From contig JADJXR010000001.1 in assembly GCA_016710285.1 (NCBI GenBank), positions 3,086,955 to 3,150,954 on the forward strand: a DNA stretch of 64,000 nucleotides, written 5' to 3'. The notes under the pieces were generated by a model. The model was given only the letters and a program-made list of their open reading frames with translations. It was not told where the DNA came from and did not search any database. The DNA comes from Chlorobiota bacterium. Its GTDB lineage: Bacteria > Bacteroidota > Ignavibacteria > OLB7. Of this stretch, positions 1 through 31,380 are shown in pieces (the first letter of the stretch is position 1; each line of letters starts with the position of its first letter). The translations under genes and the position numbers were made by a program.

Positions 1-1
1 C

Positions 2-1429
2 TATCCCGGCATAAGCAACGGCTACAACGGTGTGTGGGAGGTGTATGGATGGTTCAAATCGGGGAAGGTGATTGCCAGCGACCGGAACACCGGGTTGTGG
101 GTGATGAACTTCAACAACGCCACCGCTGGCTCCATTTCCGGGGTGGTGCGCGATTCCGCCACCAACCAGCCGATTGCCAACGCCACCATCACCGTCCCGC
201 AACTGAAGCTGACGATTTCCACCAACGCCGACGGAGCCTACTACGTTGGCGGCGTTGCCGGAACCACCATCACCCTTAACACCTCGCGATTCCCCTACGC
301 TGGAGCCACAACGCAGGAGGTGTTGCAGGGGGACCGGAAGCAGGATATCCTTCTAACAAAACTCCCTCAAGAGTGGCTAACCATCCATGCCCAGGACACC
401 GCAGGGGTGCCGATCAACGACTTCCTGTTTGCGGTGGAGCCGATCAGCCATTCGGAGAAGGCAAGCAATGGAGAAGGAAGCCTTCTTCTTTCACGCGATA
501 GCACCTTCATGGTGGCCGTGGGGAAGTGGGGATACCGCATCACCCGCACGCCGGTGAAAATCCCGGAAGGGGGGAAGGATCTGACGGTGACGTTGCAAAC
601 CGGCTACGAAGATGACGCAACGCTGGACCTTGGCTGGAGCTACGACGACCCCGCCGACAACGCCACCACCGGGCGCTGGGTCCGGATTGTTCCCTATCTG
701 GGCTACAATTGGATTCATCCCGATGCCGAGCCAACGCGGCAGAACGGCTACGTTTTTATGACCGGCGAACCTCCCCGCAACGCGCCACCGCAGATCAACG
801 ATGTGAACCGTGGCCAAACCACGCTGACCTCCCCGATGATGGACCTGTTCGGCTGGAGCGGCGTGAAAATCCGGTACGACCGCTGGTTCGTCCACTACCC
901 TGCCGACTCGGTCCGCGACTCGCTCTGGATTGAGCTTTCCAACGACGGCGGGCAAACCTGGAAGCTGATGCGGTGGCACGCCGAAGGGCGGTCCGGCTGG
1001 GCATCGGACACGGTGGAGCCGGGCGAATATCTGCCCCTAACCACCCAAATGAAATTCCGCATCCGCACCCGCGACACGCTTGGGACCAGCCTTGTGTTTG
1101 CCGCAATGGATAACTTCAACGTCTTCGTCACCCCGCCGCTTTCGGCACCGCACGCCGCGTCGCAAACGGGGGGCACGCCGGGGATAGAGTTGCGCGCCAC
1201 CAATGGAGGCGTGGCGGTTCAGTTGGCGGAGAAGTATGCAGGAAAGCCGGTGAGGATTGAGCTGATTGACCTTCTTGGAAACACAAGGCAGCGGTTGCTT
1301 GATGGCGTTCTTTCAGCATCGGCGCAAACGCTTTTCTTCAACCCCGATCTCCCTTCCGGCTGGTATGCCGTGCGGGCAAGTGTGGGGGGGGAAGTGGGGC
1401 GCATCCAGCCAGTGCTGATCGCCAAATAA
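2..1429 (+). CDS. Secreted T9SS cargo protein, 5'-partial (reading frame is open to the window edge). It has a carboxypeptidase-regulatory-like beta-sandwich (ISGVVRDSATNQPIANATITV...TNADGAYY) and a C-terminal T9SS sorting domain.
   Basis: The frame is open from nt 2. The C-terminal ~80 aa (GIELRATNGGVAVQLAEKYAGKPVRIELIDLLGNTRQRLLDG...SGWYAVRASVGGEVGRIQPVLIAK) match the T9SS type-A CTD pattern. Confidence 0.5.
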   Translation, partial: YPGISNGYNGVWEVYGWFKSGKVIASDRNTGLWVMNFNNATAGSISGVVRDSATNQPIANATITVPQLKLTISTNADGAYYVGGVAGTTITLNTSRFPYAGATTQEVLQGDRKQDILLTKLPQEWLTIHAQDTAGVPINDFLFAVEPISHSEKASNGEGSLLLSRDSTFMVAVGKWGYRITRTPVKIPEGGKDLTVTLQTGYEDDATLDLGWSYDDPADNATTGRWVRIVPYLGYNWIHPDAEPTRQNGYVFMTGEPPRNAPPQINDVNRGQTTLTSPMMDLFGWSGVKIRYDRWFVHYPADSVRDSLWIELSNDGGQTWKLMRWHAEGRSGWASDTVEPGEYLPLTTQMKFRIRTRDTLGTSLVFAAMDNFNVFVTPPLSAPHAASQTGGTPGIELRATNGGVAVQLAEKYAGKPVRIELIDLLGNTRQRLLDGVLSASAQTLFFNPDLPSGWYAVRASVGGEVGRIQPVLIAK

Positions 1430-1486
1430 CCCCCCTGGAGAATTGACCGTGGAGAATTAGCGGCGTCCCCCGCCGAACCGAAATGA

Positions 1487-1540
1487 AATGCGCATTGTTG
1501 AGGCCAGGTTGTGGCAATCAACAATGCGCATTCTGTTTTG
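1487..1540. terminator. Bidirectional rho-independent terminator between two convergent genes.
   Basis: Perfect 15-nt inverted repeat aatgcgcattgttga ... tcaacaatgcgcatt with a 16-nt loop, followed by ctgttttgg. Confidence 0.5.
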
Positions 1541-1618
1541 GCGAATTGTGTGGAAGCGGATGCCGAAGGTGCAGCAGCGCGATGCGATCCCCTGTTGTTG
1601 ATGGAGCAGCTTCTTGGC

Positions 1619-2659
1619 TTACTCCAAATCAAGTTGGGTTGGGGTGGGAGCTTCGTTGGGCGTTGCCAAGGATGTCCCTTTGGTATTCAGGAACCACTGC
1701 TTGGTGTACGGGTCGGTGCTGAAGAACGTGGCCAGCAGCTTCCCAATTTTGGCTTCGCCAGTTGGGCTGGGGTGCACGCCGTCGGCTTCCACATCTTCCG
1801 GCAGCCACGTGTGGCCAACGCTGTTCGGGGTTGCGCCGCTGGTCCAGAAAGGGGCGGCCCAGGCAACAAGCGGAGCCTTGCGGTCATCGCCATGCCAGTC
1901 CAGCCGTGGATCCGTTTCGGCAATCTGTGCTTCGATCAACCATTTCCACATCCATGAGTTGTAGTAGGCGCGTGGCTCCAGATGCTTCACCAATCCGTCG
2001 TCCTCCGGTTTGGGGGAGACGTATTGCGTGGTGTTCCGCCCCGTGACGTACACCACCCGAAGGTTCGGGAAAGTGGTGCGGATCCGTTGCAGCAGCTCAA
2101 TAAATCCCTCACGCTCGCGGTTGACGGCATCGGGGAAGGTGAGTGTGTCGCCGCGCCCTTCCAACGATCCGGTCTTCAGCCAGATCACCGACACCTGGTT
2201 GAACGACGCGCCAGCATCGCGCAAGGTCCGCCCCACGTTGTTCTCAAAATATCTGCCGCTGGGATCGTTCATTTTCTCCAGCGAAATTCCCCCTTGCCCG
2301 CCGTTCACAAACAGCAGGGACGGGTTGAGATTCGGTAGCTTCATTGCCTCATCAACAAATGCCGGGAACTCCTGCGTGGGGCTGCTTGCGCCAAGCAGCA
2401 GCAGCACAATTTTCCCATTTGCCGAAGCAACCCCCGCCGTGTCCAGCGGGGTGATGCGGATGGTGACGTGTTCCAGCGCGGTTGTGTGGGCGCGTGGCGG
2501 GGTGTTGCTGCCGCCGGGATACAGTCCGCCGGAAAATCCTTTGTAGAGGCCTGTTCCCAGCAGGTCAATAGGGGTAAACGGTTGGGCCGAAATGCTGGCG
2601 AAAGCAGCACAACAGAAGAGCGTTGCAAGCAGAGAAGTGCGCATCATGGGGACCTCCAT
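1619..2659 (-). CDS. Secreted SGNH/GDSL-family hydrolase.
   Basis: Signal peptide MMRTSLLATLFCCAAFASISAQP. C-terminal DGVHPSPTGEAKIGKLL is the SGNH DxxH catalytic motif. The start was moved to the internal Met because the upstream ORF extension is not signal-like. Confidence 0.55.
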   Translation of the reverse strand: MEVPMMRTSLLATLFCCAAFASISAQPFTPIDLLGTGLYKGFSGGLYPGGSNTPPRAHTTALEHVTIRITPLDTAGVASANGKIVLLLLGASSPTQEFPAFVDEAMKLPNLNPSLLFVNGGQGGISLEKMNDPSGRYFENNVGRTLRDAGASFNQVSVIWLKTGSLEGRGDTLTFPDAVNREREGFIELLQRIRTTFPNLRVVYVTGRNTTQYVSPKPEDDGLVKHLEPRAYYNSWMWKWLIEAQIAETDPRLDWHGDDRKAPLVAWAAPFWTSGATPNSVGHTWLPEDVEADGVHPSPTGEAKIGKLLATFFSTDPYTKQWFLNTKGTSLATPNEAPTPTQLDLE

Positions 2660-2863
2660 TTGGTTACGTTGAAGATAGTTCCGAAGCAACGTTGCCGAAC
2701 AGAGACAGCTGTAGATGATGCGTTCCTGCGTGGGGGAAAAATAAAGGTGGGCTACCTCTCTCAAGCGATGCGGTTGAGTATATCCCCAACACTTGGATTA
2801 CGGATTGCGCCACAACGATCTTGATGCTGCCGTGGAGAAGGCGCTGCGGTAGAGGGGGGTGGC

Positions 2864-4219
2864 TCACTCCAGCACCAATAATTCTACCATTGATTTCTCC
2901 CCAATTTGGAGTTGAAGAAAATAGACTCCTGCTGGAATCCCTTCCGCAACCAACTCTGCCGTTGCTCCATTCTTGGTTTCGGTGAGATTTATTGGTTGCT
3001 CAATGGGAATTTTTTGCCCAATAACATCTGCCAATTCAACAACGCATGGAGCGTGTGCAGAAATTCCTTGTAATTGCAGCTTCAGTGTTCGGTTGCGTGC
3101 CGGGTTTGGCGAAATAATTAGCTCAGGGGAAATCTTGCATTGGTCTTGATTGCTCACACCACTGGGCTGTAATGGAACCACTGTTGGATAGCGTCCTTCC
3201 CACTGGATACCAGCCAAAAAAAGCCATCGTGTTCGGTCGCTGAAGGAGTGCGTAACGTCGTTGATTTGGCGGCTGCATGAAGTGATAAACCATTTTCCTT
3301 GCCAATCAAAAATTTCGCTGGCGTGCGATGTTGCAAGGAAATATTCGCTGCGGTCGTTAAAATCAAGCGGATTATCGCTGATGACATACCGGGTACCGTT
3401 CCCCCCTTTCCAAAATAAATACCACAACCCGTTCCTCTGAAAAACACATGGCGACTCGGGATGAGCGTACGTGAATTCCTCGGTTCCGGTAGTCTTGCGG
3501 GTCAGTACCGGCCCGCGATCGGTCCAATGTGTGCGGTCGGGGCTGGTTGCCGCCGCAACGCAGCTATATTCTTGGTCGGCAGAAGGGCGGTTGGGATCGG
3601 CCTTTAACCGAGCCACATAATAGAGAATCCAGCCATGTTGTGGGTGGGGAATAACGTGCGCGTCGCGGCAAGAAACCGGCCCGCCGGAACCGCCCAAATA
3701 CCCTTTTGGATGATAGCTTGCCCAGGAAGTATCGGGAGCCATAATTGGGCTAATAAAGTGACGTTGCCAAGTATAGAGGTCGTTGGAAATTGCCAGCATC
3801 ATGTGCTCCCCAGCAAAATATCCAACCCCTGCTTCTTTCCCCACGTAATACATGTAATATTGGCCGTTAAATTCAATCACGTAGGGTGCGGTAACGTGTC
3901 CGGCATCCAGCGTGCCGGGTGGGCCAAGCCGCAAGGCTGGCTGCAGGTGCGTCCAATTCAATAAATCCGGGCTTGTGGCATGGCCAATAACAATCTGGTT
4001 GCTGTCGCGATACCAAACCTCGTTGCTCACAGTCCCCTCAATAAAATAGAGGTGCCATAAACCATCGGTTCCCTGAATTAAACAGTGGTCGTTGACGTAT
4101 CCTCCGGGAATATCAAAAACGTAGCGAAAAAGGGCGGAATCGTTGCGGTTGGCAGGTTGGGAAAAGAGGGGAATAGCCGTAAAAAAAATGAATAGCCAGA
4201 AAAATAGAGATGCGCTCAT
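2864..4219 (-). CDS. Secreted 5-bladed beta-propeller glycoside hydrolase (GH43/GH32 furanosidase-superfamily-like) with a T9SS C-terminal domain.
   Basis: N-terminal signal peptide. Repeated W-rich propeller motifs (DGLWHLYF, GWILYYV, GLWYLFW). C-terminus SPNPARNRTLKLQLQ...GVYFLQLQIGEKSMVELLVLE is a T9SS CTD. GC is about 50%, lower than the neighbouring genes. Confidence 0.5.
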   Translation of the reverse strand: MSASLFFWLFIFFTAIPLFSQPANRNDSALFRYVFDIPGGYVNDHCLIQGTDGLWHLYFIEGTVSNEVWYRDSNQIVIGHATSPDLLNWTHLQPALRLGPPGTLDAGHVTAPYVIEFNGQYYMYYVGKEAGVGYFAGEHMMLAISNDLYTWQRHFISPIMAPDTSWASYHPKGYLGGSGGPVSCRDAHVIPHPQHGWILYYVARLKADPNRPSADQEYSCVAAATSPDRTHWTDRGPVLTRKTTGTEEFTYAHPESPCVFQRNGLWYLFWKGGNGTRYVISDNPLDFNDRSEYFLATSHASEIFDWQGKWFITSCSRQINDVTHSFSDRTRWLFLAGIQWEGRYPTVVPLQPSGVSNQDQCKISPELIISPNPARNRTLKLQLQGISAHAPCVVELADVIGQKIPIEQPINLTETKNGATAELVAEGIPAGVYFLQLQIGEKSMVELLVLE

Positions 4220-4235
4220 GGAGTTGCCTGATATT

Positions 4236-4952
4236 CTAATTGGTGGTGCTCATTGTCTGCTTCGGCCATTGTTCCAACTTCCCCAACCATTCATTAAAAA
4301 AACGGCATTCCTGCCGCACCGTTGCTAATCCGATTGATTGTATTGCCAAAGTGCCCATTCGCGGTTTTCGATACCCTTGAATGATTGCCTCCACACGCTT
4401 TGATGGAGCAGTGAGACGGGAGTCGTTGATTTCTTCGGGAGTTTCAAATTGCCTGCGCACTTTTGTTAGGTCTTCTACTAACTCAGGGCGGCCTATGCTT
4501 TCTCCAAATGCTTTGCAATCGCTAAATAAAAGCCCTTCAAATTCATGCATAACCACATAAGGAGGGAAACGTGCTGGATAGAAGTCGCCGCCAAGCTCAC
4601 GTTCGATGTCTTGCAGTATGGCTTGTTGTACTCTGCTTGGTTTCTCCGAGAATAAAAGCCTTGAGGCTTCACCTCTCCCAGGCCAAGATTTATCACCAGT
4701 TGAGGGCAACGCATAATAATCTACCATGGTGGTTATCAAACGCTTCTTGTCGGCTTTTAGGTGCTTGATGATATCCTTACGAGCCGATGGCCAAGAGCGA
4801 ATGCCGCCGCGGTTTTTGTTCATTCGCGAGTCCCCCAACAGTTTTGGGCTAACCTCGCTATAACCATAATTATAGAGGTGAGGAGCCAAAACTGCATGAA
4901 CGAAGCGTTCTTCAGTTATTCCTTCTACTAAAATCAATAAGCGGCTCATCAT
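4236..4952 (-). CDS. DUF4276 family protein, a TOPRIM/RloB-like predicted nuclease partner of OLD-type ABC ATPases.
   Basis: N-terminus MMSRLLILVEGITEERFVHAVLAPHL matches the characteristic LVEGxTEExFV...L.PHL opening of DUF4276. Its start codon lies 1 nt from the upstream ATPase stop (or overlaps it by 32 nt if the first Met is used). The gene is AT-rich. Confidence 0.6.
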   Translation of the reverse strand: MMSRLLILVEGITEERFVHAVLAPHLYNYGYSEVSPKLLGDSRMNKNRGGIRSWPSARKDIIKHLKADKKRLITTMVDYYALPSTGDKSWPGRGEASRLLFSEKPSRVQQAILQDIERELGGDFYPARFPPYVVMHEFEGLLFSDCKAFGESIGRPELVEDLTKVRRQFETPEEINDSRLTAPSKRVEAIIQGYRKPRMGTLAIQSIGLATVRQECRFFNEWLGKLEQWPKQTMSTTN

Positions 4953-4953
4953 A

Positions 4954-6060
4954 TTATTCCATGGCGGGGCGACCCCCAATTTCATTTTTCTCCCATAGCT
5001 GACCCAAGCTGTAATCTTCCATCCAAGACGCTAATTCTGCTGAGTTGAGTCTGGTAAATTCAGTGGAACTATGCACCCTGTTTGCCACAAGAATATCTTC
5101 CGGCATAAATTGATCAAGCAACAGCGGAGATTGCGTTGAAACGATCACCTGCGTTTGGAACGACACCTCTTGAATTATTGAAGCCAGTATGGCAATCGCA
5201 TAGGGGTGAAGGCCAAGTTCTGGTTCATCTATTATGATGATGGAAGGGCGGTAGCGGTGGGGTTGCAGCAGCAAGGTTGCCAGCGCAATAAACCGTAGAG
5301 TTCCATCAGAAAATGAAGAGACATCAAAATAGGAATCGGAATTCTTGTGCGTCCATTCCAGCCGAATTTTCTCGGGATTTAACCGCTGTGGCTCGAGCAA
5401 GAAATCATCAAAAAATGGAGCGACAAGCTGGATTGTACGCCTGATTTGCGTGTATGATGTTTCGTGGCGTTGGCGTAAATAGTACAGAAATGAGGCTATA
5501 TTGGCTCCATCAGGCCGCAAATAGCGATTGTCATTGATGTCCGAAGTCCTCTTCATCGGCGAGCTTATGCCCGTATCGTGAAAGTGATAGATGCGCCAGC
5601 TATTTAAATGGTTGCGAACATAATCAGCAACCCTATTATACGCTATATCATTAATTCCGGCTTCGCCCCCTTTTGACGTAAGTCTATTGTTCATAGGGGT
5701 ATCATATTTGGCTTTATTCCAGTATCCTACCACCTCATCTATGGGGTACAATCGGTCATCCTCTGTTGCGGATAATTCAATGGAATACTGGTTTACCCCT
5801 TCATCAAAAGAAATTCCTATTTCTATTTGCGAAGTGATTTTGGAACCGAAGTGGAGTATCCTGTTTGCACCGCCTGATTTGACAACATATTCCTGTAATC
5901 GCCCTTCGCGAATTGCGTGAAGGAAGGAGAAAACTTCAATGAAGTTTGATTTACCTGAGCCATTTGGACCAATTACCACATTAACAGACCCGAGCATCAG
6001 ATTCTTAATTGAATTGATGCTTTTAAAGCCTTTAATAGTTATGGTGTCAAGTTTGGACAT
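4954..6060 (-). CDS. ABC-type AAA_21/AAA_15 family ATPase, OLD/RecF-like and often described as AbiEii-like.
   Basis: Walker A GPNGSGKSN, ABC signature FSDGTLRF, Walker B IIIIDEPELGLHP, and a following VIVSTQSP. The true start is MSKLDTITIKGF (RC of cat at 6058-6060). The longer ORF-track extension overlaps purK and is not used. About 42-45% GC. Confidence 0.75.
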   Translation of the reverse strand: MSKLDTITIKGFKSINSIKNLMLGSVNVVIGPNGSGKSNFIEVFSFLHAIREGRLQEYVVKSGGANRILHFGSKITSQIEIGISFDEGVNQYSIELSATEDDRLYPIDEVVGYWNKAKYDTPMNNRLTSKGGEAGINDIAYNRVADYVRNHLNSWRIYHFHDTGISSPMKRTSDINDNRYLRPDGANIASFLYYLRQRHETSYTQIRRTIQLVAPFFDDFLLEPQRLNPEKIRLEWTHKNSDSYFDVSSFSDGTLRFIALATLLLQPHRYRPSIIIIDEPELGLHPYAIAILASIIQEVSFQTQVIVSTQSPLLLDQFMPEDILVANRVHSSTEFTRLNSAELASWMEDYSLGQLWEKNEIGGRPAME

Positions 6061-6061
6061 T

Positions 6062-7243
6062 TCAGGATTGTTCGTTTGCAAACATGAGAACCTCCTCAAA
6101 CAGCAATCGTTCCTCTGCCTCGGTTGCTGCTTTGGCGGCTTCTTCGGGGGTGGAGGCCAGCGCGGTGATATGCCCCATTTTCCGCCCACGCCGTGAACGC
6201 TCCTTCCCGTAAATGTGCAGATGCACGCTGGGATCCGCCAGCGTTTCTTCGTAATTGGCAACCGCACCGGACCCGTTATGTTTTCCCAAAATATTGACCA
6301 TTGCAACGCCCGGGGCGCGTAAATCGGTGCGACCCAATGGCCACCCCATCACTGCCCGAATGTGATTTTCAAATTGCGAGGTGACGCAGCCTTCAATCGT
6401 GTAATGGCCGCTGTTGTGGGGGCGCGGCGCGATTTCGTTTACCAACACTTCGCCGTCGCCGGTCAGAAAAAGCTCAACGCCAAAAATTCCAATTCCATGA
6501 ATAATTTCCACGGCGTGGCGGGCGTAGTCGCGGGCAAGGGTGGTGGCCGGTTCGCCTGCGCGGGCCGGGGCAAGCACCGTGCGGCAGATATGATGCTCCT
6601 GCACGGTTTCCACCACCGGGTACAACGCGGTTTCGCCATTTGCCCCCCGCGCAACCATCACCGCAAGCTCCTTCACAAACGGCACAAAGGCTTCGCAGTA
6701 TAATTCACGTGCTGGATTTCCCTTGGTGATTTTTTCCCAACCGATGGGAATATCCTCCGGTTTGCGGATCGTCGCGTTCCCGTAGCCGTCGTAGCCGTTG
6801 CGCCGGCTTTTCAGGATAAATGGATACCCGAATTGCTGGCCAAATGCTTGCGCGTCGCCGTGGGTTGCAACCGCACGGAAGGCCGCCACGGGAATTCCCG
6901 CATCGTCGAACGTCTGCTTCTGGATCAATTTATCCTGAATTTTCGCGACCGATGCCGCGCCAGGCCGCAATACAAACCCTGCCCGTTCAATCACCATTAA
7001 ATGGGCTTCCTCAATGAACTCACTCTCTAACGTGATAACGTCGCAGTTGCTGGCAAAATGGAGCAAGGCAATGTGGTCCGAAGGGTCGGCAACGGTTTCG
7101 CGGTGGGCAATTTGCCCGGCGGGTGAGTTGGCATGGTTTTCCATAATGTGGACTTTCATCCCAAGCTGGAATGCGGCGATTGCGGTCATCCGCGCAAGTT
7201 GCCCGCCGCCAAGAATGCCAAGTGTTGGAGGGTTGTAGATCAT
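6062..7243 (-). CDS. purK: N5-carboxyaminoimidazole ribonucleotide synthase (PurK, ATP-grasp).
   Basis: ATP-grasp PurK-like sequence along the whole length (GILGGGQLARM..., VLVNEIAPRPHNSGHYT). The start is probably MIYNPP. Confidence 0.85.
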   Translation of the reverse strand: MIYNPPTLGILGGGQLARMTAIAAFQLGMKVHIMENHANSPAGQIAHRETVADPSDHIALLHFASNCDVITLESEFIEEAHLMVIERAGFVLRPGAASVAKIQDKLIQKQTFDDAGIPVAAFRAVATHGDAQAFGQQFGYPFILKSRRNGYDGYGNATIRKPEDIPIGWEKITKGNPARELYCEAFVPFVKELAVMVARGANGETALYPVVETVQEHHICRTVLAPARAGEPATTLARDYARHAVEIIHGIGIFGVELFLTGDGEVLVNEIAPRPHNSGHYTIEGCVTSQFENHIRAVMGWPLGRTDLRAPGVAMVNILGKHNGSGAVANYEETLADPSVHLHIYGKERSRRGRKMGHITALASTPEEAAKAATEAEERLLFEEVLMFANEQS

Positions 7244-7369
7244 GGCTGTAAAGATAGGAAGAGTTGGTTGCACAGGAATGCCACATGGGGGCGAAGGAAG
7301 GGGCGCAACAGAAAAGCCATCCGCGATATGCGCAGATGGCTTTTACGATGGTTCGCCGTTGTGCTGCCG

Positions 7370-7750
7370 TTAGGTTGTTTTGGAACGAACAGCTTTGGTG
7401 GAAAGGTTGCGCAAGTAGTAGAGTTTTGCGCGGCGAACTTTCCCCTCGCGGACGATGCGAATCCCCTGGATGGTTGGCGAGTGAACCGGGAAAATCCGTT
7501 CCACGCCAACGCCGTTGCTCACTTTCCGCACGGTGAAGGTTTCGCTGGAGCCTGCGCCACGGCGCGAGATCACGATCCCTTCAAAGTTCTGGGTGCGCTC
7601 CTTTCCCCCTTCCACAACGCGCACGGCGATGTTGATCATATCCCCCGGGCGGAAGGAAGGGATCATCACATCGGCGTCGTTGTTTTTGGCACGACGGGTT
7701 GCGGCGGTCTGCGCGATCACCTGCTGGGTCAGTTCTTCAATTTCTTTCAT
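7370..7750 (-). CDS. rplS: 50S ribosomal protein L19.
   Basis: MKEIEELTQ...[32 protein letters not shown] is canonical L19. The ORF-track start is an upstream GTG, so the internal ATG is used. Confidence 0.9.
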
Positions 7751-7885
7751 GGTATGCCTCCGTGTATCTGTTGTCTGTTGCTGAAAAATTTCTTGGCTGT
7801 GCCGTGCTGTTGGTTCCCGTTGGCGTGCTGCCTGCGTTGGGCGGCGCACTGCGCTGCGGGAAATGGAAATCAGTAATCGGCAAGC

Positions 7886-8614
7886 TCACTCATCCAGAGT
7901 GTCCAAAATATCTGGCCGGCGTTGGCGCGTGCGTTCCAGTGCTGCGGCTTCGCGCCATGCGGCAATTTTTGCGTGGTCCCCGCTTTGCAAAACCTCTGGG
8001 ACATTCATGCCCCGGAACTCTGCCGGCTTGGTGTACTGCGGCGCGTCAAGCAATCCGGTTTGGAAGGAGTCGCCCAGCGCCGATTCGCTGTCGCCCATCG
8101 CGCCGGGAAGCAGCCTGACGAGGGCATCGGTCAGGACCATTGCCGGAAGTTCGCCGCCGGTTAGGACGTAATCGCCAATGGAGATTTCTTGCGTCACCAA
8201 TGTTTGGCGAACCCGCTCATCCACCCCTTTGTAATGGCCGCACAGCAGTATCAGGTTTGCGGCCATCGAAAGGCGATTGGCAAGCGATTGCGTCAGCTGC
8301 TGGCCATCGGGGGTCAGGAAGATGACTTCATCGTACTTGCGCTCGGCCTGCAGCCGCTCCACACATTCAAAGATCGGTTCGGGGCGAAGAACCATTCCGG
8401 CTCCGCCGCCGTAGGGGGTGTCGTCCACCTGCTTGTAGCGGCCCAGGCCGTAATCGTGCAGGTTGTGGATGTTGATCTCCGCCAGGTTCGCCTTGCGCGC
8501 ACGGCTGACGATGGAAGCATCCAACACGCTGGCGAAGGTTTGCGGCACAACGCTCAGAATGTCAATCCGCAGCAACGGAGTTTCGCGAGGGGGGGCGGGC
8601 AAGGGCTTACTCAT
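7886..8614 (-). CDS. trmD: tRNA (guanine37-N1)-methyltransferase.
   Basis: TrmD signature regions ([41 protein letters not shown]). Confidence 0.9.
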
Positions 8615-9188: not shown

Positions 9189-9791
9189 TTATCCTGCGTT
9201 CTCTTCGGCTGCGGGCGCAGCGGCTTCGGCAGCGGGTGCTTCTTCGGCAGCAGCAGGTGCAGCGGCTTCGGCAGCAGCGGCGGCCTCGGCTTCGGCTTTT
9301 GCAGCAGCTTCGGCAGCGGCGGCGGCTTCAGCCTCGGCTTTTGCAGCAGCGGCAGCAGCTTCGGCAGCAGCGGCGGCCTCGGCCTCGGCTTTTGCGGCGG
9401 CTTCGGCTTCAGCTTTGGCTTTTGCTTCGGCAGCAGCGGCAGCGGCTAAGCGTGCTTTTTCGTCGGCAGAGCGTTTGCTGTCAAGGTGGGTTTCTACCGC
9501 TTTTGCGACGGTATCGGCGGCAACGCCTTTGCGAAGAAGGTAGCGTTCCATCAGAACGCCTTCGCGGCGAAGCAGGGCGCGGACGGTGTCGGTTGGTTGC
9601 GCGCCGCTGTTCAGCCAGTAGTGGACGCGGTCGCGTTGAAGGATGGTGATAGGATTACCGGTCACCAGTGGATTGTACTGGCCGACTTTCTCAAGGAAGC
9701 GGCCATCGCGTGTGTTGCGGCTGTCGGCGGCGACGATATCGTACACCGGAGCCTTTTTCCGTCCCATTCTTCTCAAGCGGAGCTTGACCAT
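9189..9791 (-). CDS. rpsP: 30S ribosomal protein S16 with a ~110-aa Ala/Glu/Lys-rich low-complexity C-terminal extension.
   Basis: N-terminal [41 protein letters not shown] is canonical S16. The tail is (AEAKA/AAAAE)n. Confidence 0.85.
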
Positions 9792-9856
9792 GTTTCTGCG
9801 TTGGTTGAGTTAGTGTTGCTGTATTTGTTCTGAAAGAATTGTCTGCGTCGTTCGGA

Positions 9857-11197
9857 TTACCGTTTCCGCCCCATCAGCCCTTTTGCGGCCATTCCTGCCA
9901 TTTTCCCCATTCCGCCGCCGCTAAGTTGGCGCATCATCTTCCGCATTTCGTCGAACTGCTTCAGCAGGTTGTTCACATCTTGGATTGTTGTCCCGCTTCC
10001 GCTGGCAATCCGTTTCCGCCGGCTGGCGTTGATGATCTCCGGCTTGTTCCGCTCTTCTTTTGTCATCGAGGTAATCATCGCTTCCAGCCGCCCCATTGCT
10101 TTGTCGTCCACTTGGACCCCCTTCATTGCCCGGTCCATTCCGGGAAGCATCCCCAGCAGGTCGCGGATGGATCCCATTTTTTTGATCTGCTGAAGCTGCT
10201 GGTAGAAGTCCTCCAGCGTGAACTGGTTCTTGCGGAATTTCTCTTCTAATTTCCGGGCTTCGGCTTCATCGTACTGCTGCTGGGCTTTTTCCACCAGCGA
10301 GACCACGTCGCCCATTCCCAAAATTCGGGAGGCCATGCGGTCCGGGTAGAACTGCTCCAGCGCGTCCATTTTTTCGCCAACGCCGATGAACTTGATCGGT
10401 TTCTCCACCACCGAGCGGATGGAGAGCGCGGCGCCGCCGCGGGTGTCGCCATCAAGTTTGGTAAGGATAACGCCGTCGAAGTTCAGCCGCTCGTTAAAGG
10501 CTTTGGCGGTCGTGACGGCATCTTGGCCGATCATGGCATCCACCACGAACAGAATTTCGTTCGGGCGGGTGCGGTCCTTGATTTTGGCCACCTCTTCCAT
10601 CATCGCCTCATCAATCGTCAAGCGTCCGGCGGTATCAATGATGATGATATCCTTCCCCAATCGCTTGGCTTCCACAACGGCGCGTTCGGCAATCGTTACC
10701 GGGTTTTCCCCTTCCAGATTGAAGACCGGAACCCCGATTTGTTCCCCTAACGTCTTCAGCTGGTCAATGGCGGCGGGGCGGTAGGTGTCGGCAGCAACCA
10801 GCATCGGTTGGCGGCCTTTCCCCTTGAAGTAGCTGGCTAATTTGGCCGAATGGGTTGTTTTGCCGGAGCCTTGCAGTCCGCACATCATAATGATGGTGGG
10901 ACCCGCCGGTGCCATTTTGATCTCGGCAAGGTTGTTCCCCATCAGCTCCACCAACTCATCGTAGATGATCTTGACGATCATCTGCCCGGGCGTTACCGAG
11001 GCCACAACGTTCCGGCCAAGTGCCTTTTTCTGAACGTCGTCAACGAACTTCTTGGTTACTTGGAAGTTGACGTCGGCATCAAGCAGTGCGCGGCGGACTT
11101 CGCGCAGTGCTTCGGAGATATTCTCTTCGGTTAGCCGCGCTTCGCCGCTAATCCGGCGGATTGCTGCGTCAAGTTTGGCACTAAGGTTCTCAAACAT
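9857..11197 (-). CDS. ffh: Signal recognition particle protein Ffh.
   Basis: SRP54 N, GTPase and M domains (GLQGSGKTT, DTAGR, Met-rich C-terminus GMGKMAGMAAKGLMG). Confidence 0.9.
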   Translation of the reverse strand: MFENLSAKLDAAIRRISGEARLTEENISEALREVRRALLDADVNFQVTKKFVDDVQKKALGRNVVASVTPGQMIVKIIYDELVELMGNNLAEIKMAPAGPTIIMMCGLQGSGKTTHSAKLASYFKGKGRQPMLVAADTYRPAAIDQLKTLGEQIGVPVFNLEGENPVTIAERAVVEAKRLGKDIIIIDTAGRLTIDEAMMEEVAKIKDRTRPNEILFVVDAMIGQDAVTTAKAFNERLNFDGVILTKLDGDTRGGAALSIRSVVEKPIKFIGVGEKMDALEQFYPDRMASRILGMGDVVSLVEKAQQQYDEAEARKLEEKFRKNQFTLEDFYQQLQQIKKMGSIRDLLGMLPGMDRAMKGVQVDDKAMGRLEAMITSMTKEERNKPEIINASRRKRIASGSGTTIQDVNNLLKQFDEMRKMMRQLSGGGMGKMAGMAAKGLMGRKR

Positions 11198-25632: not shown

Positions 25633-25989
25633 GGGGGAGGAAACTGGAGAAGGGGGGAAGAAAGGAAGGGGAGATGTGTCGAGCCAACCTTTCTGAATCT
25701 TTTTATCTGATTTTTTTGTTCATCACCACCTACCATCTCCTGTTTGGGCGGAAGAGGTGGGGGCATGGCCACCAGCGCGCGGAGTCCCCTTCAGAACCTG
25801 CGCGAACCCTAGGCCGCTGCAACCCTATGCTTTGCGTAGGGTGAGTTGCTGATATTTCAAAGCACCGAACGTTCCCAAATCGTTTGGCCCACCTTGCTGC
25901 CCTCCCTTTTCTGTGAGTATTCTGTGAGTTCCCGTTGCCAGCTTTACCGCCACACAAATTCCAATCACCAACACAGGAGAGAGATCACC

Positions 25990-28900
25990 ATGAAGTTTTT
26001 ACGCTTTCTGCTTGCGCTGTGGGCTGTTGCGCTGGCGGGGATCACCACGCAGGGGCTGGCTTCCGGGTTGACCCCGGTTGCCGGGCATCCCCGAATCTTG
26101 CTGACCCCCACGGTGAAAACCACACTGACCGCAAAGAAAAACAGCAACCATCCAACATGGCTTGCGCTGAAGTCCAAAGCCGATGCGCTGCTGAACCAAA
26201 CCATCGTCCAGTGTAAGTACAACAACTACTCCAACTGGTACTCCAACTCCATCTATTTCGAGGGGAACGGCTCCGGCTGGATGCACGCGGCGTTCACCCT
26301 TTCGCTGGCGTGGCAAATCAGCGGCGACACGAACTACGCCAACAAAGCCGTGGCGTTGGCCGATGAAATTATCCGCGCCGATGCCGACCCGGACAACCAG
26401 GGAACGGGCAAATCCCCGATCACGCTGGACCGCTCCTACACCTCGCGCCATGTTGGCCCGGCAATCGCCGTGCTGTACGATTGGTGCCACTCCCGGCTTG
26501 ATTCGGCACGCAAAGCCAAGCTCCGTGCGGTGATGGTCAAATGGTTCAACCACCTGCGGAATGGCTCGGCCAGCAGCGATGTCTATCAAAAAAATGGCCC
26601 AGCCACCGGCGCGTGGTTCGGCTCGCATCTTAGCTGCGCCGCATGGATGGGATACGCCATTGCTGGCGACGACACCGCGTCGCAGCGGATGATTGACTGG
26701 GCACGCGCCCGGTTCGACGGCACTCAATCGGCAACGCTCTCCTCCAGCGATTACCCCACCACCTACCGGATGCAAGGCTTCACCGGGGGGATCAAGTCGT
26801 GGTTCGGTTCGCGCTGGGGCGTTCCTTCCACAACGCAAGGGGCAACCGGCGCGCCGATGAAAGGGGGAATCTTCCCGCAAGGTTGGTGGTACGGCAATGC
26901 CGAGTTCGGGCGGATGGTGGATTACATGCTGGTGGTGAAATCGGCAACGGGGGAGGACCTGCCGGGAATGTATCAAACATATCTGGCCGACATCTTCATA
27001 GCCCACCGCCAAGCCACGCTTCCGGGGAACCTGCTGATTGATCCCAACGGCGAGTGGCGCGGAAGCCAGGGGGCCGTTGTGGAGCGTGGGCTTCCCGCAC
27101 GGATTGCCACCGCGCTGGCTTCGGTCCCGAACGTTGGCGCGGCGGCGGCAACCTTTGCGTGGGATGAAATCCCACCCACTTCTTCCTCGGTGGCGGGCGT
27201 TAGCGTTGCGGCGTTGCAACCCTGGGAGGAGTTCCTGTACCGGAACACCGCAGGAAGCGGCGCAACGGTTGCGCTTCCCCTTGCCTACACCCCATTTGCG
27301 CCGAACTACCCAGCGGCCGGGGCCGGCAACGGAGCTATTCCATATTTCACCATGCGCTCTTCCTGGGGGAGCAATGCGGTCTGGGCAAGCGTGAATATGG
27401 GGGCGCAGGTGTATGATGAGTTCATGCATTATCAAGCCGGGCATATCGAGCTTGCAAAAGGGAACCACCGTCTGCTGATAAGCCCAACAACATGGAAAGG
27501 GGATTCCTCGGGATTAGGGGTCACCAGCTTGGGGCCGGTGATTAGCGACCACTCCGGCGCGAAAAACACTCTCTATTTCGATGACTTCGGCGACTACCAA
27601 TCCACAAGCTCGACCCGCGTTGGCGGCCAGGGACCGCACGGGAAGGATAAAGTTGTTGCCCAGGAGATGAACCCCAGCTACAGCTATATCAGTGCCGACC
27701 TTTCCACCGCCTACAACAACATGGACTGGCCACGTTCGGTGGGGGACACAACCAACCGGAAGCTGGAGTATTTCTACCGAAACTTCGTCTATCTGCGCCC
27801 GGCAAACTTGTTTGTGGTGTACGACCGCGTAAAAGCCGCCGCCAGCAGCAACGCCAACGGTGCCTACCGCAAGCGGCTGCGCTGGCATTTCCCAACCCAG
27901 CCCGTTGTTAGCGGAAGCAGCATCCGCGTGGATAACAGCGATGCCCGGCTGTGGATGCGGGCACTGCTTCCGGCAAGCCCAACAATCACCACCACCAGCT
28001 TGGTCAGCAACCCCGACAACACGTGGGGTTCGTGGCTGAACTATCTGTTCAGCAGCAAAACCTACCGCGCCGAAGTCAGTAATGCGGCCAACCCGCTCCA
28101 GCAGCCATTCCTAACGGTGATGCAGGCCGGAACCACATCCCTTGCGGAACCGACATCGGAGCTTTTCTACACCACTGATTCGTTGATGATTGGAACCACT
28201 ATCGAGCTTGCCGACGGGCGGGACTATGTGATGCTGTTCAACAACCGCCCCGGGCAAGTGCCGCAGCCAATCACCTACGCCTACTATCCCCTTGTTGGCT
28301 CGATCAACGGAACCCACACCCTGTGCGGGCTTGAGCCAAACACCGCCTACACTGTGGAGCTGCAAGGAACGTTTGTGGTGGTGGCCAAGGACCCAACCGG
28401 GGCGTTCACAACAACCGCCGCTGGGGTCCTGCAGTTCACCCCGCCCGGAGGCACGCCGCAAGGTGGCGGAGATGACGATGATGGGAACAACGGAGGCGGC
28501 GGAGATAATGGAGGTGGTGGAAACAATGGAGGCGGCGGAGATAATGGAGGTGGTGGAAACAACGGCGGCGGCGGAGACAATGGCGGCGGAGACAACGGCG
28601 GTGGTGGAGACAACGGCGGCGGCGGAGACAATGGCGGTGGCGGAAACAACAACGGCGGCGGAGCGATCATCGCTGGCCACCCGCGATTGCTGCTGACCCC
28701 GGCAATCAAGACCGCGCTGCTTGCGAAGGTCCAAGCCAACGACCCAACATGGACCGCGCTGAAAACCCGTGCGGACATTCTTCTGACCTATCCAATCACC
28801 CAGTACAAAACCGCAACCGCCTACAACTGGTTTGCCAACACCATCTTCTACGGCTATCAGGGGGAGGGGTGGTACAGCGATGTGATACCGCTGGCGTTTG

Positions 28901-31380
28901 CGTGGCAGATGACCGGCGACACCAACTACTGCAACAAGCTGCTGGCGATTGCCGACGAGTTCATCCGCGCCGAGTACGACCCGGCAAACCAGCCACCAAT
29001 CGGGCGTTCGCCGATGACGCTGGGGAACGCCTTCCCGTCGCGCTATGTTGGCCCGGCGGCGGCCATCATCTTCGATTGGTGCTACGACCACCTGGGCGCG
29101 ACCCGCAAAAACCAGATGGTGACGCTGTTCAACCGCTGGTTCGACTCGCTTCGGGTTCCTGGCGGAAGTGCTTACGAGAACAACGGACCATCGAACGGCA
29201 ACCACTACGGCGGCCACATGGCAGCCGCGGGGTGGATGGGCTACGCCAGCTACGGCGACAACCCACGCGCCCAGCATCTGATTGATTGGGCAATCGTCCG
29301 GATGGATGGCACGCTTACGCCAAACCTTGCCTCCACCGACATCCCCGCCAGCAACCGCAAACAAGATTTTGAGGGGAGCGTGCGGAACTACGTCGGCTCA
29401 ATCTGGGGAATCCCAAGCTCCACCCCGGGCATTTACGGCACGCCGTTCCGGGGCGGGCATAACTTCCAGGGGTGGGCCTACGGCAATGGCGAGTTCAGCC
29501 AGATGATTGACCTGCTTCAGGCAATGAAAACTGCTGGCGGACCAGACTTCTTCCAGCAATATCCGGGCTGGTTCAGCGGGATGTACCGCTCGCTTCGCCA
29601 TTCGCTGATGCCAAGCCGTTTTATGATTGACCCAATTGGCGATTGGGGGGGGAACAACGCCGTCGCAATCCAACCGGGGCTGCCGCATCGCTTGTCGTTT
29701 GTGCTGCAATCCACACCCGATGGACCCACTGCCCAGCATTTTGCCAACGTGGAAATGGCCCAGAACCACACCTGGAATTTCTACGCCCAAGATGTCCGCG
29801 TTATTGAGCTGCGCGAATGGGAAGCCTTCTACTACCAGGACTTCACCCGGCCCGCAACGCCAGCGGTGATGCCAACGTGGTACAACAACATCAACAGCGT
29901 AACGCCGAACGGCAGCAGCCCGAACGGCGCAATCCCATACTACATGATGCGGAGCAGTTGGGACACCGGAGCGGTGTGGGCATCGTTGCAAATGGGAAGC
30001 GCGAAATGGGGGGACCACCAGCATCTGCACGCCGGGCACCTGCATATCGTTCGCGGGCGGGATCAGCTTCTTATCAGCCCAAGCAATTGGAAAGGGGGAC
30101 CAACAGGGTTGGGAATTGTTGGCAACGGCATTGGCTACACCGATTACTCCGGCGTGAAGAACACCCTGTTCTTCGACGACTACGGCGACTACCAACGGAA
30201 GTCCAGTGGGAACATCGGCGGGCAAGATGTGTACGGATTCGACCGCCCGGTGGCCAACGAATTCACCGAGGATTACGGCTACGCCCGAAGCGATTTGGCA
30301 TCGGCTTACAACTTTGCGGGCTGGAACCCGGCAACGCAATCCAGCACCCAACTTTCCGACACCACACAGCGGAAGCTGGAGAAGTTCTACCGGAACTTCG
30401 TGTACCTGAAAGGTCCCGGAATTTTTGTCACGTACGACCAGATCAAGGCCAAAAGCAGCAACAACCCTTTGGGGGCTTATCGGAAGCATCTGCGCTGGCA
30501 TTTCCCGGACCAGCCAACAATCAACGGGAAAAGCATCCATGCCGAAAAAGGGGCCTCGCGCATTTGGATGCACACGGTGATTCCGGCAACCGTCGGGTAC
30601 ACCAAGTACAGTTTGCAGAACAGCAATCCAGACAACACCTACAACGATCCCAGCTTGAACTACCTGTTCCAAAGCAACACGTGGCGGGTGGAAGCGCGCG
30701 ACACACTGAACCCGCTGGAAATGCCGTTCCTGACGGTGATGCAAGTTGGGCCGGCGAACCTTTCGGAGCTGACCACCAGCGCGTTCGCCACCACCGACAC
30801 ACTGATGATCGGTTCCCGAATTATCACCGCAGCGGGGGAGGAGTATCTGGTGCTGTTCAATAACCGAGCGGGGACGGTTCCGCTGGCGATTGCTTCCACC
30901 AACTACCCGTTGGTTGGGGCAACCAGCGCAACCCATCTGCTGTGCGGAATGAAGCCTGCGGGGAAATATCAGATAGCCATCAGCAACGGCGTGGTGACGG
31001 TGGCGGAAAATCCCGCCGGAACGTTCACCGCCTCGGCTGGCGGAGTGCTGATGTTCCAGCCGTCGGCGGTTTCTGGCGCGGCAAAGGCTGTGCCCGGGGA
31101 AACCGGGGAACTGCGCGAATCGGGGCTTAGCCTACGCGTTTTCCCGAACCCCAGCAATGGCGCGGCCACCGTGGGTTTCCGCTTGCCGGAGTCGGGGAAT
31201 GTGAAGGTTCGGGTGCTGAATTTGTTGGGGGGAACGGTTGCCGATCTGCTGGACCGCCAGCTTCCGGCGGGCGTTCATGCGGTGGAATGGAGCGGCAAAG
31301 GGGAACCAGCCGGAACTTACCTTGTTGAGATTATTGCCGGCGCACGCCGCGACGTACAAAGACTGGTGCTAACGAACTAA
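25990..31380 (+). CDS. Giant secreted tandem two-module polysaccharide lyase-like protein (heparinase II/III / alginate-lyase-like alpha-toroid plus beta-sandwich, duplicated). It has a Gly/Asn/Asp linker and a T9SS C-terminal domain.
   Basis: Each ~800-aa module opens AGHPR(I/L)LLTP...W.ALK..AD.LL (HPRL motif as in heparinase II / alginate lyase N-termini) and closes with a beta-sandwich. The linker is GGDDDDGNNGGGGDNGGGG.... The C-terminus FPNPSNGAATVGF...GTYLVEII is a T9SS CTD. RBS aggagag lies upstream of the ATG at 25990. Confidence 0.5.
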   Translation: MKFLRFLLALWAVALAGITTQGLASGLTPVAGHPRILLTPTVKTTLTAKKNSNHPTWLALKSKADALLNQTIVQCKYNNYSNWYSNSIYFEGNGSGWMHAAFTLSLAWQISGDTNYANKAVALADEIIRADADPDNQGTGKSPITLDRSYTSRHVGPAIAVLYDWCHSRLDSARKAKLRAVMVKWFNHLRNGSASSDVYQKNGPATGAWFGSHLSCAAWMGYAIAGDDTASQRMIDWARARFDGTQSATLSSSDYPTTYRMQGFTGGIKSWFGSRWGVPSTTQGATGAPMKGGIFPQGWWYGNAEFGRMVDYMLVVKSATGEDLPGMYQTYLADIFIAHRQATLPGNLLIDPNGEWRGSQGAVVERGLPARIATALASVPNVGAAAATFAWDEIPPTSSSVAGVSVAALQPWEEFLYRNTAGSGATVALPLAYTPFAPNYPAAGAGNGAIPYFTMRSSWGSNAVWASVNMGAQVYDEFMHYQAGHIELAKGNHRLLISPTTWKGDSSGLGVTSLGPVISDHSGAKNTLYFDDFGDYQSTSSTRVGGQGPHGKDKVVAQEMNPSYSYISADLSTAYNNMDWPRSVGDTTNRKLEYFYRNFVYLRPANLFVVYDRVKAAASSNANGAYRKRLRWHFPTQPVVSGSSIRVDNSDARLWMRALLPASPTITTTSLVSNPDNTWGSWLNYLFSSKTYRAEVSNAANPLQQPFLTVMQAGTTSLAEPTSELFYTTDSLMIGTTIELADGRDYVMLFNNRPGQVPQPITYAYYPLVGSINGTHTLCGLEPNTAYTVELQGTFVVVAKDPTGAFTTTAAGVLQFTPPGGTPQGGGDDDDGNNGGGGDNGGGGNNGGGGDNGGGGNNGGGGDNGGGDNGGGGDNGGGGDNGGGGNNNGGGAIIAGHPRLLLTPAIKTALLAKVQANDPTWTALKTRADILLTYPITQYKTATAYNWFANTIFYGYQGEGWYSDVIPLAFAWQMTGDTNYCNKLLAIADEFIRAEYDPANQPPIGRSPMTLGNAFPSRYVGPAAAIIFDWCYDHLGATRKNQMVTLFNRWFDSLRVPGGSAYENNGPSNGNHYGGHMAAAGWMGYASYGDNPRAQHLIDWAIVRMDGTLTPNLASTDIPASNRKQDFEGSVRNYVGSIWGIPSSTPGIYGTPFRGGHNFQGWAYGNGEFSQMIDLLQAMKTAGGPDFFQQYPGWFSGMYRSLRHSLMPSRFMIDPIGDWGGNNAVAIQPGLPHRLSFVLQSTPDGPTAQHFANVEMAQNHTWNFYAQDVRVIELREWEAFYYQDFTRPATPAVMPTWYNNINSVTPNGSSPNGAIPYYMMRSSWDTGAVWASLQMGSAKWGDHQHLHAGHLHIVRGRDQLLISPSNWKGGPTGLGIVGNGIGYTDYSGVKNTLFFDDYGDYQRKSSGNIGGQDVYGFDRPVANEFTEDYGYARSDLASAYNFAGWNPATQSSTQLSDTTQRKLEKFYRNFVYLKGPGIFVTYDQIKAKSSNNPLGAYRKHLRWHFPDQPTINGKSIHAEKGASRIWMHTVIPATVGYTKYSLQNSNPDNTYNDPSLNYLFQSNTWRVEARDTLNPLEMPFLTVMQVGPANLSELTTSAFATTDTLMIGSRIITAAGEEYLVLFNNRAGTVPLAIASTNYPLVGATSATHLLCGMKPAGKYQIAISNGVVTVAENPAGTFTASAGGVLMFQPSAVSGAAKAVPGETGELRESGLSLRVFPNPSNGAATVGFRLPESGNVKVRVLNLLGGTVADLLDRQLPAGVHAVEWSGKGEPAGTYLVEIIAGARRDVQRLVLTN
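28470..28670 (+). repeat. In-frame tandem 15-nt DNA repeats encoding the Gly/Asn/Asp-rich inter-module linker.
   Basis: ggcggcggagataatggaggtggtggaaacaatgga... is reiterated about 12 times. Confidence 0.55.

Follow-up and report, generated by a model that had tools for sequence, protein, structure and literature searches.

The systems closest to the locus described here combine an ATP-binding cassette (ABC) ATPase with an effector of the TOPRIM type, and they differ in how the two parts are encoded: in OLD and in GajA of the Gabija system, the ATPase and the TOPRIM domain lie in one polypeptide, while in PARIS they are the products of separate, adjacent and coupled genes, one for an ATPase of the AAA_15/21 class and the other for AriB, a TOPRIM effector of the DUF4435 family. 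Two further systems, MADS (Mad3 and Mad4) and AbiL, join an AAA_21-type ATPase to a DUF4276 protein (Mad4) and to the RloB protein AbiLii of the TOPRIM superfamily, respectively (PMC12065111, PMC11464382). The candidate system HEC-01, i.e. Hma-embedded candidate 01, was described by Payne et al. as one of the HEC systems, first found embedded in other defence systems (bioRxiv 10.1101/2024.01.29.577857), and its two genes, as modelled in PADLOC, encode first a compact ABC ATPase and then a DUF4276/TOPRIM-like protein. We analysed a gene pair with this same two-gene architecture and order in a stretch of 64,000 nucleotides (nt) from a Chlorobiota bacterium (GenBank assembly GCA_016710285.1, contig JADJXR010000001.1, positions 3,086,955 to 3,150,954), which is called the window hereafter. 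We consider that the pair is probably a horizontally acquired HEC-01 cassette, in which HEC-01A is a compact ABC ATPase and HEC-01B, encoded apart from it, a predicted TOPRIM-like DUF4276 nuclease.

On the minus strand, the order of the genes is purK, ATPase gene, DUF4276 gene and glycosidase gene, and they are spaced by 1, 1 and 16 nt, respectively. The features of the locus, in window coordinates, are given below (GC, guanine plus cytosine content; aa, amino acids).

6062-7273, minus strand: purK (N5-carboxyaminoimidazole ribonucleotide synthetase, N5-CAIR synthetase), the native upstream flank; TGA stop at 6064-6062; Pfam ATP-grasp 2.7e-59 and PurK_C 1.7e-19; GC 56.2%
6061: spacer of 1 nt between purK and the ATPase gene
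4954-6060, minus strand: HEC-01A, ABC (SMC/OLD-like) ATPase of 368 aa; ATG at 6060, TAA stop
4953: spacer of 1 nt between the ATPase gene and the DUF4276 gene
4236-4952, minus strand: HEC-01B, DUF4276 protein of 238 aa with a TOPRIM-like fold; ATG ATG at 4952, TAG stop
4220-4235: spacer of 16 nt between the DUF4276 gene and the glycosidase gene
2864-4219, minus strand: GH43/GH32-like secreted glycosidase with a type IX secretion system (T9SS) C-terminal sorting domain; ATG at 4219; Pfam Glyco_hydro_43 1e-12 and Por_Secre_tail 1.4e-5
4222-6072, minus strand: predicted insert of about 1.85 kb, with a leader of about 12 nt, the two genes and a trailer of about 14 nt; placed from the junctions with empty sites, boundaries approximate
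7312-7344, minus strand: 14-bp inverted repeat, 93% complementary, with a 5-nt loop, within the 96 nt that separate rplS from purK; from an inverted-repeat search

The assignment to HEC-01 comes from searches of PADLOC-DB, in which the ATPase matched HEC-01A (PDLC04175) with an E-value of 1.4e-143 and 476 bits (protein residues 2-365, profile positions 4-362 of 363), and the DUF4276 protein matched HEC-01B (PDLC04188) with an E-value of 5.7e-69 (protein residues 1-229, profile positions 11-226 of 230) and HEC-01B models only. As expected of HEC-01, gene A comes first, with gene B next to it on the same strand. The original prediction had left the named family of the pair open; both proteins are full-length matches to this PADLOC candidate and, judged by these profiles, the pair belongs to a known, still weakly validated family. 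What differs from the context of discovery is the location, since the copy in the window lies outside Hma or any other defence system, between purK and the GH43-like gene. To our knowledge, embedding in another defence system is not demanded by the profile rules for HEC-01.

Weaker matches of the ATPase in the same database were to AriA (1e-31), mad3 (7e-28), AbiLi (8.7e-24), NsnB (8e-21) and Old (2.6e-17), and the features tested rule out membership in PARIS, MADS, AbiL, Menshen, OLD and Gabija. The match to AriA (PDLC02980; residues 26-316, profile positions 1-304 of 304) corresponds to the span of the generic Pfam AAA_21 match and is more than 110 orders of magnitude below that to HEC-01A, and the pair encodes no effector of the AriB type. 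For MADS, the NCBIfam model MAD3 (NF047739) scored 106.5 bits against a cut-off of 420, the second protein had no NCBIfam match, and no methyltransferase or other MADS gene was found near the pair. The AbiLi match is partial, with no RloB or AbiLii match for the second protein, and so is that to NsnB of Menshen (E of 1e-20, rounded), whose NsnA/NsnC partner is missing at the pair. The profile match to OLD is again partial; moreover, the pair consists of two open reading frames (ORFs) with their own stop and start codons, in contrast to the single polypeptide of OLD and GajA, and the DxD motif reads D-Y-Y. Finally, Gabija has a GajB/UvrD-like helicase as partner, and no helicase gene adjoins the pair. 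Thus, the initial description of the module as OLD/PARIS/Gabija-like holds for its class, an ATPase with a TOPRIM partner, but not for membership in any of these three systems. PARIS provides the best mechanistic analogy: there, the AriA ATPase scaffold frees the AriB nuclease upon sensing of a phage protein (PMC11464382).

The conserved residues of the two proteins lie at the following window positions.

5947-5970, minus strand: Walker A of the ATPase, G31-S38
within 5290-5310, minus strand: signature of the ATPase, S251-D252-G253
within 5218-5241, minus strand: Walker B of the ATPase, D278-E279
5125-5139, minus strand: STQSP of the ATPase (residues 308-312), with Gln310 at the H-loop position
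4923-4925, minus strand: E10 of the DUF4276 protein
4719-4721, minus strand: D78 of the DUF4276 protein
4536-4547, minus strand: H136-E137-x-E139 of the DUF4276 protein

All the motifs first quoted for the ATPase, GPNGSGKSN (residues 31-39), FSDGTLRF (250-257) and IIIIDEPELGLHP (274-286), were found in a protein whose start was set by 29 homologues opening with MPELDTITVKGFKS. K37 of Walker A, S251-D252-G253 and D278-E279 are invariant in 30 aligned ATPases. The H-loop position, Q310, is also an invariant Gln across these 30 sequences; in related AAA_21, OLD and SMC ATPases this residue is usually His, and the replacement suggests that the ATPase acts as a slow-hydrolysing switch. Pfam matches were to AAA_21 (1e-34), SMC_N (4e-17) and AAA_15. 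An AlphaFold2 (AF2) model of the ATPase, with a predicted local distance difference test score (pLDDT) of 80.6, had Foldseek matches to PtuA (from Septu and retron complexes), GajA, OLD and the heads of SMC, Rad50 and RecN, at E of about 1e-13 and a template modelling score (TM) of about 0.5; according to the model, the protein belongs to the SMC-head type of ABC ATPases and has no close relative of solved structure.

For the second protein, a Pfam search gave DUF4276 at 2.2e-44 over the full length, and the motif by which it had originally been recognised, LILVEGITEERFV, was found. Its conserved acidic residues are E10, E14, D78, those of H136-E137-x-E139, and D145; an alignment of 43 DUF4276 sequences shows no variation at E14, D78, H136, E137 and E139, and conservation of E10 and D145 in 90% of the sequences or more. 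HEC-01B has the three-layer alpha/beta fold and the conserved Glu after beta-1 that define a TOPRIM domain, E10 being located after beta-1 and D78 at the end of beta-3, which matches the expectation. DUF4276 has been placed in the Toprim superfamily (PMC12065111), and a metal-binding site shared by HEC-01B and Burkholderia OLD has been reported (10.1101/2024.01.29.577857). That OLD is preferred to AriB as a structural match is a slight and weak hint that the substrate would be DNA rather than tRNA. A search of the DUF4276 profile against Protein Data Bank (PDB) sequences gave nothing meaningful, and no PHROG family was found for the protein. As for its start, an upstream ATG at 4985, chosen by gene callers in a strain-level relative, would give an overlap of 32 nt with the ATPase gene; the start at 4952 is preferred because most of 42 homologues begin at the M-x-R-L-L position. 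The pair had been described as overlapping or spaced by 1 nt, and the latter is thus better supported; the two genes are 1-4 nt apart at every locus examined.

Horizontal acquisition, also part of the original prediction, is borne out by the foreign composition of the pair (see below) and by empty sites in sister lineages. In the strain-level relatives L001-L003 (Logan contigs), rplS, purK, the pair and the glycosidase gene are all in common with the window, at 95.9% nucleotide identity over positions 2800-7868. Four contigs from sister lineages, with purK 86-88% identical (L005, L168, L170 and L171), run purK straight into the glycosidase gene, without the pair; the stop codon of purK and the start codon of the glycosidase gene overlap as a 4-nt ATGA in L005, L170 and L171. 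In L169 (purK 84% identical), a decayed glycosidase remnant follows purK. The junction without the pair in sister lineages indicates that about 1.85 kb, with the pair, was inserted. It also indicates, together with the remnant in L169, that the glycosidase gene was at the locus before the pair, and on this comparison it is an older accessory gene of the clade; the possibility that it arrived together with the pair was therefore rejected. When the junctions of the four sister-lineage contigs were aligned with the window, homology to the purK tail extended to GCAAAC and restarted at CCATGA, the former stop/start overlap, and blastn homology between the window and L005 was limited to 6093-7243 and 3094-4186. 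The insert provides the last three codons of purK and its stop. As far as the alignments tell, the cassette is inserted precisely at the ATGA overlap of the relatives, between purK and the glycosidase gene.

We found no trace of the agent of insertion at the borders of the pair, i.e. no integrase, transposase or tRNA gene, and only short chance-level matches when direct or inverted repeats bracketing it were sought; nor was an attC-like conserved leader or trailer motif seen at the cassette ends of six loci. A purK scan of metagenome contigs gained no close relatives (best match 56% identical); those of use were obtained by a scan of genomes and from a protein database. The nearest homologues from outside the species share 57-62% identity for the DUF4276 protein and 65-70% for the ATPase, and those with a source name come from Verrucomicrobia, Accumulibacter, Nitrosomonas, Nitrospirota and Halothiobacillus; such low identity and scattered phyla fit a widely exchanged module.

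The purK-rplS-trmD-rimM-rpsP-ffh neighbourhood was verified by Pfam. A core translation/purine operon had been named as the site of insertion. The pair is not inside the operon of ribosomal proteins: it has purK on one side and an accessory glycosidase gene on the other, rplS and purK are parted by a strong hairpin, and purK of the sister lineages is not beside rplS. This hairpin, at 7312-7344, may be a terminator or attenuator; if so, purK, the pair and the glycosidase gene would form a transcription unit apart from rplS. A scan of 2500-8000, carried out without a Bacteroidota/Chlorobiota promoter model, gave no excess over shuffled sequences (7 vs 5.4 promoters and 10 vs 7.3 terminators). 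A terminator-like hairpin, GCGGCAGGAATGCCGT then TTTTTTAATG, is present at 4302-4317 on the minus strand, inside the 3' end of the DUF4276 gene and about 65 nt ahead of its stop, in a region where the counts of terminator-like elements are not above the shuffled expectation.

The composition of the pair is the most atypical in the window. Its GC is 44.9% (43.8% for the ATPase gene and 46.6% for the DUF4276 gene) versus 59.7% for the remainder of the window and 59.0% for the window as a whole; the segment had been described as 42-45% GC in a genome of about 65%, and the first figure stands while the background is about 59%. No other stretch of 1825 nt in the 64 kb is as low, the minimum elsewhere being 54.1% and the mean outside the island 59.8% (standard deviation, SD, 2.3%). 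The tetranucleotide distance of 4001-6000 gave z = 5.1, in SD above the mean, and GC at third codon positions (GC3) is 0.46-0.49 in the pair versus a median of 0.71 for the 43 long ORFs of the window. The low-GC tract runs past 4236, which had been taken as the end of an AT-rich islet, and continues through the glycosidase gene (GC 49.9%, GC3 0.51); the edge at 4236 is therefore a gene boundary and not a compositional one. At five other loci, the GC of the pair is 2-6 points under that of the host; the gap found here, about 15 points, suggests that a donor of low GC passed the pair on recently.

Since its acquisition, the pair appears to have been kept. Comparison of the window with L001 gave ratios of nonsynonymous to synonymous divergence (dN/dS) of 0.125 for the ATPase gene (dS 0.113) and 0.25 for the DUF4276 gene (dS 0.166), with 0.013 for purK (dS 0.084) and 0.18 for the glycosidase gene (dS 0.166) as neighbours. 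Over all three strain-level relatives the pair has no indel, and its dN/dS is 0.12-0.25 for dS of 0.11-0.21. From the dN/dS values, we conclude that both genes are under purifying selection.

Other differences between relatives were observed next to the pair. Synteny with the 96%-identical L001 ends about 64 nt past the stop of the glycosidase gene (window 1-2800 vs L001:5067-12222). Past this break, L001 has, like the sister species, AhpC/thioredoxin-like, AlkZ-like and PD40 genes, and the window has a GDSL-like gene (1619-2764) and a gene with a CarboxypepD_reg domain (32-1429), both of host-like GC; by this comparison, a rearrangement or replacement adjoins the island. Furthermore, L171 and L170 (L171:1236-2054 vs L170:4977-6326) have an identical PurK protein, yet the glycosidase gene of the window matches theirs at 88% and 77% identity, which suggests that glycosidase alleles recombine between lineages at the purK locus.

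On the other side of purK, a GmrSD type IV restriction gene with a GC of 41% lies immediately upstream in L005, L168 and L170 (L005:6277-7986, L168:5229-6980 and L170:2012-3721), as a full-length match to PADLOC HEC-06 (2.6e-235). It is missing from L169 and from the lineage of the window, where rplS is upstream of purK. With GmrSD on one side and the pair on the other, the flanks of purK are thus variable and have repeatedly gained defence genes in this clade. A further low-GC segment (37-41%) was noticed at L005:360-2355 (also L168:1-1366), in which a 285-aa ORF without family match precedes a C-5 cytosine DNA methyltransferase gene (Pfam 5.5e-62); these two genes, about 4 kb from GmrSD, are probably a type II restriction-modification (R-M) system.

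The most likely function of the pair would be that of an ATPase-controlled TOPRIM nuclease for phage defence. With no more than about 12 nt of insert ahead of its coding sequence and about 14 nt behind it, the pair would probably rely on the purK promoter and be transcribed by read-through, and its translation would be coupled. By analogy with PARIS, OLD and Gabija, a dimer of the ATPase would hold or gate the TOPRIM nuclease. The ATPase would sense a phage cue, possibly an anti-restriction protein, a plausible trigger because the pair is frequently found between hsdS and hsdR in other genomes (see below). The nuclease would then be licensed for metal-dependent cleavage of nucleic acid, with the result that phage replication is stopped or the infected cell aborted.

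A different reading of the same association makes the pair a back-up of restriction, like PrrC/RloC or RloA/RloB, that fires e.g. when a phage anti-restriction protein disables the type I R-M system; the copy in the window would then be an orphan, inactive or reliant on an R-M system elsewhere in the genome. Among eight close homologues on long contigs surveyed for their context, three (L086, L174 and L175) lie in hsdM-hsdS-[pair]-hsdR(-radC) operons, where the pair overlaps hsdS by 8-14 nt, and thus fill the same slot of type I hsd loci as PrrC, RloC and RloA/RloB; the effector of PrrC is an anticodon nuclease domain, not a TOPRIM fold. A fourth, on a 2.3-Mb contig (L085), looks solitary, but it is accompanied by remnants of the C-terminal part of hsdS (E 1e-5) and of the N-terminal part of hsdR (E 3.5e-20), at 7700-8010 and 9800-10070, and therefore derives from a copy embedded in a type I R-M system. 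The embedding of HEC systems in other defence systems goes in the same direction. However, the four other contexts are without hsd genes, the pair being solitary in L004, L172 and L173 and beside a RepB-primase element in L087, and the 64 kb of the window lack any hsd homologue. Besides, the pair is intact and under purifying selection between strains, which suggests an autonomous function. We regard the restriction-linked explanation as rather unlikely for the copy in the window. Residence in restriction operons also bears on another proposal, that of a selfish, toxin-antitoxin-like addiction module in which the ATPase restrains a nuclease toxin and the module persists because its loss is harmful, with no anti-phage benefit. 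A patchy horizontal distribution, the very high cross-phylum conservation (65-70% identity for the ATPase), distant homologues in 13 plasmid records (33-38% identity) and the neighbouring RepB-primase element would all suit such a module, and Pfam labels AAA_21 a 'putative AbiEii toxin, type IV TA system'. But this label is given to the whole family and proves nothing, the pair lacks a small gene of the antitoxin type, and addiction is compatible with defence by abortive infection, restriction operons being a residence that suits defence better. We consider this proposal improbable.

Two more explanations would deprive the pair of any role in defence. One is that of a housekeeping pair for DNA repair or recombination, built on the domain logic of RecF-RecR (ABC ATPase and TOPRIM) and placed in a core operon for a core function. 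The ATPase does match the SMC_N, RecF and RecN heads weakly, and the pair has housekeeping neighbours in the window as in L004, L172 and L173, but the match to RecF is 31 bits for a cut-off of 172, the best matches are to defence models, and the pair is embedded in restriction systems elsewhere; with a foreign composition and empty sites at the same locus in the four sister-lineage contigs, a core function appears very improbable. The other is that the pair is a decaying or silent passenger, i.e. DNA of recent arrival that either goes unexpressed or has lost its function, as could be thought from the strongly un-ameliorated composition, from the absence of a dedicated promoter in the 1-nt gap, and from the inactivity of one family member when tested. 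This is the explanation to which we give least credit, since both ORFs are intact and have kept all their motifs, without indels with respect to L001-L003 and with dN/dS of 0.12-0.25, and since the tight spacing favours expression by read-through.

Several points weigh against our interpretation of the pair as a HEC-01 defence cassette. The representative of HEC-01 chosen by its discoverers gave no protection from any phage in E. coli (10.1101/2024.01.29.577857), and a cold-seep homologue protected E. coli B from at least one of T4, T5 and T7 (10.1101/2024.09.26.614923); the case for a defence role of HEC-01 is made by this positive test and by genomic association. HEC-01B is a putative nuclease, in which the canonical TOPRIM DxD reads D78-Y79-Y80, with Y80 invariant, and the metal site may perhaps be built differently, from H136, E137 and E139. 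Because of the Gln in place of His in the H-loop, ATP hydrolysis may be slow or absent. Co-transcription with purK is deduced from the spacing of the genes. In the 64 kb of the window, there are no other recognisable defence, hsd or mobile-element genes, so that guilt by association has nothing to build on locally; the remainder of the window is housekeeping, with e.g. RecG, XseA, LigA, haem synthesis and gamma-glutamyltranspeptidase. Lastly, relatives of the DUF4276 protein are absent from 50,697 phage records, an absence which removes one kind of support without contradicting defence.

Other features of the window lie farther from the pair. Ribosomal protein S16 (9189-9791, minus strand) is 200 aa long, with the Pfam S16 domain covering residues 8-67 only and a C-terminal half made of low-complexity repeats rich in Ala, Glu and Lys. 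Three very large ORFs have a host-like composition: 25846-31380 on the plus strand (1844 aa), and 36546-41393 (1615 aa) and 42263-47425 (1720 aa) on the minus strand.

The pair leaves the current understanding of defence systems unchanged. A more daring speculation would go further: HEC-01 cassettes devoid of promoter would be 'operon-hitchhiking' elements, spliced exactly at the stop/start junctions of operons, and in the present case purK-coupled expression, together with an H-loop Gln that would make the ATPase a nucleotide-binding switch in place of a hydrolysing motor, could let nucleotide status decide when the nuclease fires, a link already proposed for Gabija. It is a long shot in our opinion; if true, the pair would stand for a separate way of integrating and regulating a defence module. 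What the locus offers is a documented natural example for an under-characterised candidate defence family, with an occupied site and several empty ones, approximate boundaries, purifying selection and a HEC-06 GmrSD hotspot beside purK. Residence between hsdS and hsdR, the D-Y-Y that replaces DxD and the Gln of the H-loop may also serve as hypotheses on why one heterologous test of HEC-01 failed and one succeeded.

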